DNA of 64,000 nt, from NCBI GenBank assembly GCA_965213685.1, contig CBDBZY010000064.1:1472001-1536000 (forward strand), written 5' to 3'. A program made the translations under genes and the position numbers. The notes below the pieces were generated by a model. The model saw nothing but the letters and a program-made list of their open reading frames with translations. It did not search any database and had not been told where the DNA came from. This document shows positions 37,401 through 63,732 of this stretch, in pieces (within the stretch, counting starts at the first letter, position 1; the number at the start of each line of letters is the position of its first letter). Origin of the DNA: a bacterium. GTDB taxonomy: Bacteria > UBA8248.

Positions 37401-40400
37401 GAGGGGCTGTAAATAACCGTCTTTGTTGTGAACATTCTGCGAAGTTATTAATTTCTACAATAATTCTAACATGATGTAATGTCTATGAGGGAGGATATAT
37501 GTCAGAATTTAATACAAGACAAAGGCAATCCATGTACGTAGCTGTGCAAGCAATTCAACATGGTGGCTGTCCCTGTCACTTCCTGTGGTGTATGGTTGGT
37601 TGTTTTCTTCATCTTCCAATAGTTGCTAACAGATGATGAGTTCCGTCAGCTCAGGCTGAGACAGGTATGTGCCCAGCTACAACCCAAGCAAGGGCAGAGC
37701 AGAGCAGCACAGCTTCTGGCATTGGAAGAGGACCAAAGGTACACGTAGATGAGTAATGTGCTAGAAAACTTGAGTACCTACATGTACATGTACGTTAACA
37801 CAAGTGCTATGTTCATGTATGTACACATGTGTACAGATACAATGTAGGTACATGTATTTGTTCATAATGCATGATTGTGAGCACTTTGAAGTATAAGGTA
37901 CTAGGCATGGTGAACACAAGTTGATATTGGTACCACATGCAGTGAACAGGGAGAGCTCCTGTCTGAGGCTGCCATCACTACCATTCAGAGCAGACTGAAA
38001 AGGACAAAGGCGGAGAGAATATCAATGCTCAGGGTACAGTGAAGCCCTACCTTAATTTACAAATGTAACAAACCATCTTCCAAATTGTAGAGATATGTAG
38101 GAATGGCAGTGTCAAAACCTCAGTGTGAGAAGGCCATCCCTACAGCCCTCTGTATTTTGGAAAATGTGTACCTTTTTATTGCATAACAGTACACTAGTGG
38201 TGGATGTCGTTCTCGCAAACTCATTTCAGATACTAGCAAACAAATCAGCCACCACAGATCAGCCACCACAGCAGCCTCATGTGAGGAGAGGAGATATGGC
38301 TGTATACCCATTCAATTTGTGGTATTTGATCTCGGCAACATCAATTGCTTGTTTCATCAGGTGCATCATTTCAAATTTGTTCTCACTTCAAAGCCAAGAC
38401 CTCCTGATTACCAGACAGGTGAGCAGTCAGGTGCTCACCTGACTGGTAATTAGGAGGTCTATTCCCAACTGAGTCCTTGGATATTTTCCAAGAATTTCTT
38501 TCTCTCTCCACCCTAAGCTAAAACATCTGCCGTTACTGGCCTACCAGTAAATAAACATCTTAGCTTATACAATTATACTATTAGTACATTCCATACTTTA
38601 GTAGAGTGGGTGTGGTGGCAGTTGCCAAATGCTCTGCTGCTGTCATGAGATTGTTCACATTCTTTATTACAATAATTATGTTCATGTGCTCCTCCACTTC
38701 CACTGATGACTGTGCTCACCTAAGCCCCGCACAGAGTCAGTGAGATGGTCAGCCATTCCACTGTACCCAGCATCAAGAATCAACTGTAGTAGCAACTGCT
38801 AATACTGAGCACTATCAATGCATAATAACAAATTCAGAAAACCATTAATTTTTGTACTTTTTTAGCACAAAGTGTCAGGAGTGCCCTTAAGACGGCCTTG
38901 CAGCAGCTTCATCATCCTGTGAGCAAGTTCCTTGTTGCTTGATAGAGATTACTGCTTGATCACCCAGATGAGGAGCTCCCATCATCCATTGTCCAGCTGA
39001 TCCAATGCCTCTAGCTGCTGAAGCCACTTTAGGGCTCTAGAATGGAATAACACAATCCCTGGACAACAATCTAGAGGGCTTGCTGATAACCATCATGCTC
39101 ACTTTGAGACAGAGCCCTGAGTCATACTGGCACTATGACACTGTGTGCCGGAAGAAGGGGCACCTTGCAAAAGTATGTGGCTCAGGTGGGTGGGATGGCA
39201 GCCAGGTGGGTGTCCATGGAGGAAGTATCACTAGCTTTCTCCAGCCTTTAGAGAGGATATCCTGTGTCAAGTATATACCTTGACCCCAGCTAAACAGAAG
39301 CCCTATAAGATTGGACTAACTGTGTCACATTCCAGGCAATCCAGATTCCGAGCAACTATTTCCCACAAGCAATCCTGGGGAAGTCAGTAATTAGTTTCTT
39401 CCTGCACCGCTAAGCCTATCCCTGTGGTGGGCCAGGTGCTGGTCAAGCTAGGCGACATGCAATGAGCATGAAGGAATGCATGCAGCAGTGAATAGGAATG
39501 AGTTGTCTCTCCTTGGACAAGACTGGTTACCATCAAGGCTGTTGCAGTGGTTGATAGGAAGCAACAAGTAGAGGCACTTCTGAGCACATATTCACTAGTG
39601 TTAGCCCCTGGCTTTCGTACGATGACATTAATAAGCCCACCAGATGCCAGACCATACATGTAATTTTGTCACCTCCATCCTGTGCCTTGTGGGATCAAGA
39701 GAAGGTGGGATGCAAGTAAGACAGGCTTGAGGAGACAGACTTGAGAAGACTGGCGTGCTCCAAGGATAAGGTGCATGTGATAGTTTTTCCTGCCACGTGT
39801 ATCACCTGTCACGTAAAAAATGTACATGTAAAATTAGTCTTTTGGTGCATTTGCACTCAATTATGTACATGTACATGTATGTACAGAGGGTGTTTGAGAG
39901 GATTGTACATACATGTATATAAATCACATGATAATCTTGCATATTACAAAAACTCCATATGTTCTGAACCATATCATTTGAAAGATCCAGTACCAAGGTT
40001 GCCATCCAACGTTGTGAGGCTGCATCATCTAAACTCACCCTTCCATGTGTGCTGAATTTCAGAAATCAGCCTGTTTTTATCATGTCAACCACAAGAAAGT
40101 CATATTTTGTTGTATATATTCTTCACTGGTAACATACGTTTTGCCTAACATATGTACATGCATGTACTTGTGTAGGCTTCCTCCTTCATTGATACTGCTC
40201 TTGAATATTGTTACATATATACACATGCAGCTCTTCTACCTCCCCACAGACTGGCCCGGAGGTAAAGCACTATGGTCACAAGAGGGCTAAACTCAACCCC
40301 CACAGCAGCACCACAAACCAACAGAAAGCAAAGAATAAATCCTTCGTAATGATGAGACAAAAGAAGTCAATCAGAGTGAAAGGCAAACGTTCCTTTAGAG

Positions 40401-61034: not shown

Positions 61035-63732
61035 TCACGACACTGGGTGGTCAACACCAAGCATAGTTCTATGGCTGTAGCGTTCCGAGGGATAGAGGGT
61101 ATAGTAGAAGGCTAGCTCATCGTACCATGCCCCTAGTAGTTTCACCTTCTCTCTTGAAGGCAGCTGATCATAGTAGTGATGTAGGAGTTGGGCTGTCTGG
61201 CTTTCAGGGCTGTGCAGACTCTCATCTCGATAGTAGAGTGGATTCATTTCGAATTTCTTGATCAATGCTTGAGCATCACGAGAAAATGTCTTGAAATTGC
61301 CATAAAAATCATATTGTATTAGACATGGATGGCATATGTCCATCGAGGGACGAAAATGCTCATTTAGTTCTTCCTTTTCCATGTCTATCACATACTGCAC
61401 AAATTCAGAAAAGGTTACATTGAGATCAGTCCTCTTAGGCTTGGAGGCTGCCTGCCAACTGAGGTAGTCAGTTAGTCGATACCGTAGGAGAATGTCTTTC
61501 TTAATTTTGTGTGGAAATGAATCCTGCTTTTCATAGTCCAAAGGTGGTTCAATCTTGTTTCGATAGCCAGACACAAGTCTTTCTAAAGGGTTGCGAACCA
61601 TCATAAACTTGTAGTAGCCTTGTATCATATTTGCACGTTGCACTTTGGTGAGGGTTGCGTTCATGAGAGAAGCGTGCTTGAGTGCTGGTTCAATATAAGT
61701 TGTATCATCCACCCATGGCCACTCAACAGTACTGAAGGGGAGATGGCCCCCCATATACAGCATAAGCCGTTTCATATTGGTACAGCCAATCTGTGGTAGA
61801 GAGAAGGGACAGGTGGATGAGTACTCATGTCAGAGATTGTTAAGAAGTAGGTCACCCCTATGTACATGTACATCAATATATAACCAAGCTGGTTTTAAGC
61901 TACATGTAGCTGCCATCTACATGTACATGTACATGTAGGTTTCGCAACATAGTCACACTCATAGAACTCAACATCTGATTGTATTTTGTGATTTTGTCGC
62001 AAGATGACTAAAGAAATGGTTTTAGATTTGAAATTAATTGCAGCACCTCACATATATTGTGCACTCTGTCACACTCCAACCCGCATCCAGTGTGTGACTA
62101 TCCTGCACTGTTATCACATGTAGCTTCTCCATGTGATAGATGTGCATGTACTTCTCTGGCAATACACAGCCTCTGCAGAGTTACTCACACACATGCATAC
62201 ATGTTCATGCAATACTGTGGGAAGGGAAAAACTGCATTGCCACTTGCATGCAGTGATGAATATTTGCAGGTGTCCATGCATACCACTTCACTGGGAAGTT
62301 TCCAAGGATTGTACTAAGGAGGAAGTAATATCCTGCTTACAAGCATGACATGTTACAACAGGAAACCATTAACTGGTGTATTAGCAGCTTGCTGAGATAG
62401 AACATCAGGTGGAGGAAGCTTACAGTGAGGAAAAGCACCACTCAAATCCAGCCCAAGTAGGAAGAAGGTAACAAAAAGTATATTGTAACTCAAGACAGCA
62501 GTGGGATAAGGAAGAGGTCACACTTCAGAGGAGAGCCACCGAGCCAGGAAAGAGAAACATTTGGCCTAGACTGCACTGACAGTTATACATGAAGACGATC
62601 ACAATGAGTGTATGCACTGAGACATCAGAGAGGAGTGAAGTACATGTATTCTAGTACTGAAATGTCAGTGTAGAGCAGTGTCAACTGAGACCACACCTCT
62701 ACAACACATTCTGCCATTCTGTGTACTACAACATGTACAACAGGTTGATGGTTGAGGTTGCTCACACAGAATACATAGATAAATGTACTGGTACATGCAC
62801 TGTATATATGCATGTACGGCATACATCTACATGTACATGTATGTGTACTGTACAGTTTTTGCAAGTACATGTAGCACAGTAGTTGATGGCCTCTAGCACA
62901 CTTGGAGATGTTCAGCCACACTCAACAGGTAGCCCACACACTACAGACCCAAGAAGGACACCTACATGTACTCTTCCGTATCCTCACCATGGAGTACACA
63001 ATGAACAGCCCACTATGAATACATGATACCATCATGCTCAGTTTGCTAACAGTAGTGGCTACATTGATGTTTCCAAGTGCCAAATCAATATGTGCTATAT
63101 ACTCCACATGTCAACATACTGGCCACATGAGTACATTGACCATGAAGTACACTTGAATGAGCTGGTGCTAGACCAACAGACAGACGTACATGTGTGATAC
63201 AGCAAGAGGTACAGCAGAGACATACACATGAACCAATACACACACAGACATGTGAAGAGACAGCCATAACACTACATGTACACAACTGAGAAGTGAGATA
63301 TACTCACCCACCATAGCAATGCTACCATTGACCACACACCCATTGTCCTGGGCAAAACATCCAGTTGCCTACAAATAGACAGACAGACAGACAGACAGAC
63401 AGACAGACAGGTCGACAGACAGATGAATGGATGGACAGATAGACAGACAGGCAGACAGACACAAACCGACAGACAGACATGTGTAATACCCCTCAATAGA
63501 CAAAGTGGTTATTAAAGTCCGACAGACAGACAGACAGACAGGTGCAAGGTATTGGTATTATACTACAAATGCTAATACCAACCTTTGGTACAAAGCAGTA
63601 CATGGAGCGAGTATGCTCCTCAAATATGAGGTGTCGATGGAAGAGTTTGGCTGTATGAGTGTCCACAGGGAAGTGCTGCTCTCCAGGGAAGAAGTGCTTA
63701 TGACAGAGCTTCCTGATGCGCTGCTTTTGAAA
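61035..63732 (-). CDS. Carbohydrate sulfotransferase (CHST8-14-like), copy 2; 5' exons beyond window end
   Basis: Exons 63732-63583 (..MYCFVPK) and 61790-61035. Near-identical to copy 1, with an intact frame ending GVDHPVS*. Confidence 0.9.

Follow-up and report, generated by a model that had tools for sequence, protein, structure and literature searches.

The 64,000-nt stretch of DNA analysed here (the window; positions 1,472,001–1,536,000 of contig CBDBZY010000064.1 in assembly GCA_965213685.1) is strewn with copies of an 8-base palindrome, TACATGTA. These are most likely scars left by the excision of a Tc1/mariner-type cut-and-paste transposon that targets TA dinucleotides and has CA...TG termini, a reading to which we assign a probability of about one half. 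All counts and comparisons given below refer to this one window. The palindrome has 200 exact matches, against 3.57 expected (standard deviation 1.86, largest value 8) from 100 shuffles of the window that preserve its dinucleotides, and it is about tenfold commoner than other palindromes made of alternating pyrimidines and purines. A single hexamer repeat, in different rotations, accounts for the four most frequent 8-mers of the window. When perfect TA(CATGTA)n arrays are counted at their maximal extent, 158 are found, with one unit in 123, two in 28 and three in seven; counted in any phase, there are 206 periodic runs of at least 8 nt, which cover 2268 bases (3.5% of the window), the longest being 25 nt. 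The length of these 158 arrays thus stops at about four units, whereas (CA)n, (GA)n, (GGA)n and (AGAC)n repeats in the same DNA reach 50–200 bp.

The motif is found at about 3 per kb, both within introns and between genes, with modest clustering (variance-to-mean ratio 1.4–2.0). The initial annotation, made from the letters alone, had placed the phenomenon at 39241–62975 and described the arrays as filling introns. The second description is fair, as arrays lie between the exons of an SDA1 gene and around two sulfotransferase genes, but the range has to be redrawn: the motif is spread across 1–50079 and 57466–64000 and is missing from one long stretch in between.

50080–57465 (7.4 kb): motif-free stretch, with none of the 200 motifs; holds a reverse-transcriptase fragment and a perfect (ATA)30 repeat

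This stretch contains 481 of the 4690 TA dinucleotides of the window, so that about 23 motifs would be expected there. The reverse-transcriptase fragment belongs to a long interspersed nuclear element (LINE) at 54059–55564, in which an RVT_1 domain (54565–55413) is followed by the (ATA)30 at 55475–55564.

The most direct evidence on how the units arise comes from a segmental duplication, of which copy A occupies 39136–47183 and copy B 57498–64000, with BLAST pieces that are 84–91% identical. The table of sites was curated by eye from several alignments of the two copies: a MAFFT alignment masked several unit events as runs of mismatches, and a mismatch-averse realignment recovered them but broke up a region rich in short interspersed nuclear elements (SINEs) at 45326–45640. 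The sites at which one copy has units and the other a bare TA, together with a related pair outside the duplication, are as follows.

39655–39662: one TACATGTA in copy A, exactly +6; copy B has a bare TA at 58045–58046, and the flanks are otherwise identical
57652–57665: two-unit array in copy B, exactly +12; copy A has a bare TA at 39272–39273
62963–62970: one TACATGTA in copy B, exactly +6; copy A has a bare TA at 45783–45784
62822–62841: three units, one of them substituted, in copy B, +18 in total by eye; copy A has a bare TA at 45655–45656
39863–39879: +16 in copy A, made of two full units and TGTA; the TA is unexpanded in copy B (about 58220)
28072–28079: one TACATGTA; a related 65-bp stretch has a bare TA at 34918–34919

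The remaining sites of the duplication carry arrays in both copies.

44477–44488: array common to both copies (44477/61901), with +4 (CATA, at 44483) at its last TA in copy A, the sole clean +4
47137–47156: three-unit array of equal length in copy B (63957–63976)
39823/58193, 39910/58259, 42066/60433 and 44444/61863: other shared arrays with equal unit numbers
45230/62641, 46109/63273 and 47069/63889: further shared arrays with equal unit numbers
40161/58540 and 44504/61918: two sites with n units in one copy and n + 1 in the other

The duplication thus has five sites with no unit against one to three units at a bare TA, two sites with n against n + 1 units and one clean +4, and the pair 28072/34918 adds a sixth difference between no unit and one. 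Five patch sites fell outside these classes (42298–42318; 43452, +10; 45316; 45683/62866; 45796, +22). Unit number was kept at nine of nine shared arrays, in copies that are 84–91% identical. An excision footprint is made of the target duplicate and the terminal bases of the element, and this is the composition of the unit (TA + CA + TG + TA), which occurs in whole multiples (+6n) at a bare TA at the six sites. Four of these pairs (58045/39655, 39272/57652, 45783/62963 and 34918/28072) had been quoted by the initial annotation, and they read as it described them, with no pre-existing unit in any of the empty sites, so slippage cannot seed them, as was also argued there. Its description of the pairs as copies of a repeat needs qualification, since three of the four compare the two halves of a single segmental duplication rather than dispersed elements, and only the fourth is a separate related stretch of 65 bp. 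Templated copying from a nearby array was considered and is not obviously the cause at the four sites checked, because the nearest other motif is 60–190 bp away (57652, 39655, 62963 and 28072).

Direction of change could be read in SINEs. Three families derived from transfer RNA, each of which ends in ...CATGTA on its 3' side, are present in several copies.

27419–27685, 34140–34323 and 49769–50023: first SINE family
28294–28479, 33545–33729, 35248–35432 and 49600–49745: second SINE family
22522–22692, 33941–34113 and 45328–45429: third SINE family

Some copies carry extra CATGTA units at the 3' end, and in two cases the other copies of the family polarise the difference.

27436–27449: two units in one SINE copy, a polarised +6; two other copies (34156–34163 and 49999–50006) have one
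33545–33558: two units added at a TA close to the 3' end of one SINE copy, a polarised +12; they are missing from three other copies

Both of the differences polarised in this way (2/2) are therefore gains, as the initial annotation had expected; the sites of the duplication have no outgroup.

The boundaries of the units are set at TA. In 400 of the 564 CATGTA hexamers on both strands the preceding dinucleotide is TA, followed in frequency by its transition derivatives TG (49) and CA (23), with at most 16 for any other dinucleotide; SINE ends make up eight of the 19 hexamers preceded by AT or CT. Among the ends of periodic runs, 159 of 412 are in the TA phase, compared with 69 under uniform phases and 24 in the AC phase. 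The spacer CATG between consecutive TAs occurs 200 times against 3.5 expected. Just outside the arrays, a purine-TA-pyrimidine context is favoured, and no conserved flank was found beyond 4 nt, which indicates that the motif is not carried by a single repeat family. A second spacer, in TA-TGCATG-TA, is also enriched (8 against 0.13 expected), and CATGCATG is present 18 times across the window (for example at 40155–40175 and 30056–30066).

Shorter spacers are in excess when all sites are taken together (CA 79 against 35 expected, TG 72 against 33, CG 32 against 8.4). The sequences TACATA and TATGTA, proposed by the initial annotation as +4 variants of the scar, turned out to be enriched only next to CATG patches, and the overall excess of CA, TG and CG may reflect the decay of full units, given that isolated CA and TG spacers are not enriched. 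TACGTA is enriched even away from CATG patches (12 against 4.5 expected), although it contains CpG. Within patches, neighbouring motifs lie 10 nt apart in four cases (spacers TG, CG, TA and TG) and 12 nt apart in two, which points to +4 steps there. Retention of three nucleotides from CAG...CTG ends was rejected as a source of the units: spacers of the form CA-G/C-TG (6) are no more frequent than CA-A/T-TG (11), and CAGCTG occurs 0 times. Hairpin-type footprints, as left by hAT-like elements, were rejected by direct reading because the inserted CATG is constant and does not mirror the flanks.

An element with the expected structure is present in the window, in the form of a miniature inverted-repeat transposable element (MITE).

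10370–10771, plus strand: Tc1/mariner-like MITE of 402 bp, with CAGT...ACTG termini; 19 of 20 terminal inverted-repeat bases match
10362–10369: TACATGTA adjoining the MITE; the final TA serves as the left target duplicate of the MITE

As is characteristic of Tc1/mariner elements, it has a TA target duplication (10368–10369 and 10772–10773) and terminal inverted repeats that begin with CA (CAGT), and it contains no internal TACATGTA. It is an example of a CA...TG-ended element that targets TA. The MITE and the motif that it abuts, with the shared TA at 10368–10369, were thus confirmed as first noted, but about 7.6% of the TAs of the window lie in arrays, and a TA shared by the MITE and a scar is, by itself, only suggestive. 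A scan for inverted repeats flanked by TA gave 71 pairs, nearly all of them pieces of long palindromes, arrays or TA-rich sequence, and 10370–10771 was the sole discrete CA...TG element among them.

On the excision-scar reading, insertion of the element would duplicate the target TA, and a cut 2 nt inside each 5' end at excision would leave TA + CA on one side of the donor and TG + TA on the other. End joining that kept both overhangs would convert TA into TACATGTA, a net gain of 6. The scar would present two TAs in a symmetric pyrimidine-purine context, and a transposase with a preference for this context could add units by repeated insertion and excision and so build short arrays. Scars would accumulate in neutral DNA and be scarce in sequence that had arrived recently. 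We infer from this a 2-nt stagger, the repair outcome, a preference for scars and a high past or present mobility of the family responsible. The reading fits the short array sizes with their geometric-looking distribution, the constancy of shared arrays, the empty stretch at 50080–57465 and the position of the MITE on a scar. A rough calculation, which takes to equilibrium a gain of about five sites over about 6.5 kb during about 10% divergence, would give a density of about 1 site per kb, compared with an observed value of about 2.5 per kb.

Several observations weigh against this reading. The duplication has no outgroup, so its differences between no unit and n units could in principle be exact losses. 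Three of the five new sites carry two or three units, and change has been more frequent at existing arrays than at bare TAs. This requires either that scars, which may resemble the target consensus of Tc1, are strongly preferred as targets or that units are added by another route. The earlier suggestion that each scar creates new targets would not suffice here, as it fails if a scar adds only one TA. At 45683/62866 the copies differ as TATA and TACATGTA, that is, by +4 of CATG alone, and CATG is at times doubled with no intervening TA, which the footprint model does not predict. Away from CATG patches, +4 scars show no excess (TA-CA-TA 18 against 18.4 expected, TA-TG-TA 22 against 18.6), and as these are the commonest Tc3 footprints reported, the spectrum of scars would have to be unusually uniform. 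Spacers of 5 nt of the form CA-N-TG show no excess of G/C in the middle (6 against 11 for A/T), so nothing specifically indicates CAG...CTG ends. The MITE at 10370–10771 is single-copy, no second copy of its ends having been found in the window, and no Tc1/mariner transposase was detected with Pfam among the 114 open reading frames (ORFs) of at least 90 amino acids. At no locus of the duplication is a scar in one copy matched by an element in the other; a hAT-like MITE, SINEs and further elements make up the large indels between the copies. The CATGTA ends common to three SINE families are a coincidence for which the footprint model does not account; integration of SINEs into scars is one possible reason, and one copy has CATGTACATG at its 5' junction. 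The footprint reading of the initial annotation is consequently retained in part. The TA-CATG-TA unit, the whole units at bare TAs, the two gains, the MITE on a scar and the short arrays speak for it, while the missing outgroup, the single MITE, and the failure to find a transposase or a pair of element and scar at one locus do not. The same applies to the family of CA...TG elements that it postulated, of which the window yielded one MITE and neither a transposase nor a second element.

The repeats might instead be an ordinary palindromic hexamer microsatellite, altered by slippage or by hairpin-mediated misalignment in tracts of alternating pyrimidines and purines, with transitions reshuffling TA, CA, TG and CG. 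Differences between no unit and n units would then be exact losses or rare seeding events. This account draws on the differences between n and n + 1 units at 40161/58540 and 44504/61918, on the fact that both polarised gains adjoin an existing CATGTA, and on the alternation of pyrimidine and purine in nearly all of the commonest palindromic 8-mers; the enriched CA, TG and CG spacers can also be derived by transitions from CATG or TA, and of these three only CG is enriched away from patches. We nevertheless consider it unlikely. A slippage microsatellite is expected to show instability that depends on length and a long tail of lengths, whereas none of the 158 arrays exceeds about four units and all nine shared arrays, one of them with three units, have remained at the same length. 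At the six clean sites the copies differ by whole units, and the empty copy has no unit at its TA. The preference for the TA phase at the ends of runs, and the tenfold excess of TACATGTA over other alternating palindromes, are further points on which the microsatellite account does poorly.

Microsatellites can also be seeded by the 3' tails of retroposons, which gives short tandem arrays tied to mobile elements. Reverse transcription primed at TA would then copy one or a few CATGTA units, and the gains at bare TAs would be insertions so extremely truncated at the 5' side that only the tail remained. The hexamer at the ends of the three SINE families, with its extra units in some copies, is what would be expected of such a process, but it adjoins the 3' end of an element at eight SINE ends only. 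The process can thus account for at most eight loci, whereas TA precedes 400 of the 564 hexamers and the unit of the window is bounded by TA and arises at bare TAs with no body of an element. No intermediate truncations that retain a few bases of a SINE body were seen, and the arrays have no conserved flank beyond 4 nt. All five clean bare-TA sites of the duplication differ by whole units with untouched flanks, an outcome that random truncation would give at about one in six per site, and the sole LINE fragment seen ends in (ATA)30 rather than CATGTA. Taken together, this makes an origin from retroposon tails improbable. Still less credible is the idea that selection has spread TACATGTA and maintained it as a functional binding site. 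In the available text of a study of Phytophthora, TACATGTA is described as a promoter motif bound by a MYB protein (PMC11134190), so a protein can read this exact 8-mer, and the modest clustering of the motif could be taken in the same sense. The window is, however, sponge-like and not from an oomycete; the density of about 3 per kb holds in introns and intergenic DNA alike, tandem arrays come from insertion and not from substitution, and units turn over between young paralogs. A function would, in addition, leave the origin of the units unexplained.

Precedents for excision scars of this form exist among Tc1-like elements. Minos leaves a uniform net +6 footprint at TA, as in the window; a single end of Minos supplies all four additional bases, whereas each end would supply two in the scars proposed here, and the Minos footprint is known experimentally rather than as a bulk component of a genome. 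In the available text of one source, the footprints of Tc1 and Tc3 of Caenorhabditis elegans are reported to arise from 2-bp overhangs and to be heterogeneous, those of Tc3 being most commonly TACATA and TATGTA (bioRxiv 10.1101/659086). The two elements resemble the proposed family in their TA target duplication, CA...TG termini and 2-nt overhangs at the donor (bioRxiv 10.1101/659086). TACATGTA is the product to be expected if both overhangs are kept. The difference lies in the spectrum: the +6 form dominates in the window and isolated +4 forms are not enriched, whereas the commonest Tc3 footprints, as far as the text of that source goes, are +4. Footprints are likewise attributed to overhangs remaining at the donor in the accessible part of a paper on Sleeping Beauty, the footprint of which, TAC(A/T)GTA, also consists of TA, overhang bases and TA brought together by end joining (PMC7827188). 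Sleeping Beauty differs in having a stagger of 3 nt and a scar of 7 bp, and the corresponding TA-CAG-TA and TA-CTG-TA reach just 1.5–1.7 times expectation in the window. The literature searched, outside subscription journals, held nothing on TACATGTA as a scar or on a CATGTA repeat, and no account of footprints accumulating to about 3 per kb or into arrays. If the scar reading is right, what is new is that scars of the ordinary Tc1 type have become numerous enough to form a component of the genome and have been built into arrays.

The window probably comes from a demosponge, to judge from its protein-coding sequences. Each copy of the duplication carries 3' exons of SDA1 and a carbohydrate sulfotransferase gene, and among named relatives the two Sulfotransfer_2 ORFs are closest to a sulfotransferase of Geodia barretti (62% identity).

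43648–44475, minus strand: Sulfotransfer_2 ORF of copy A
61035–61829, minus strand: Sulfotransfer_2 ORF of copy B

The two copies also differ in larger features. Copy A alone has a hAT-like MITE of 410 bp (40604–41013) with inverted ends TAGGCATG... and an 8-bp duplication, CACCACAT, at 40596–40603 and 41014–41021, for which copy B has a clean empty site. Also confined to copy A is an insertion of about 950 bp (42382–43328) with inverted ends of about 90 bp (42417–42501 and 43329–43236) and a 13-nt direct repeat at its borders, and copy B alone has an insertion of about 490 bp (59474–59960) with a 21-bp tandem repeat (59588–59666) and internal inverted repeats. A sub-segment of the duplication is inverted (44539–44939 against 62372–62044). 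Elsewhere in the window there are near-perfect long palindromes, or inverted duplications, at 1601–1965 and 50631–51305, and two long (GGA)n tracts, one in an acidic, SDA1-like coding stretch (36417–36553) and one at 50333–50539, upstream of copy B, which may be a paralog of the first.

A broader proposal, which we put forward only tentatively and hold to be possible rather than probable, is that a hyperactive TA-targeting family has left several scars per kb in the neutral DNA of a sponge-like lineage. The scars would then be a bulk component of the genome (at least 3.5% of bases here), the source of its dominant hexamer, preferred landing pads in a self-reinforcing cycle and a countable record of transposition. 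If the units are indeed scars, past jumps of DNA transposons, which as a rule escape notice since counts cover resident copies alone, would become countable, and the uniform +6 outcome would be informative about end joining in an early-branching animal. Scars would also be able to give rise to an entire class of short tandem repeats and to fill introns with them, and arrays of this kind would be wrongly entered as simple repeats when the repeats of such genomes are annotated.

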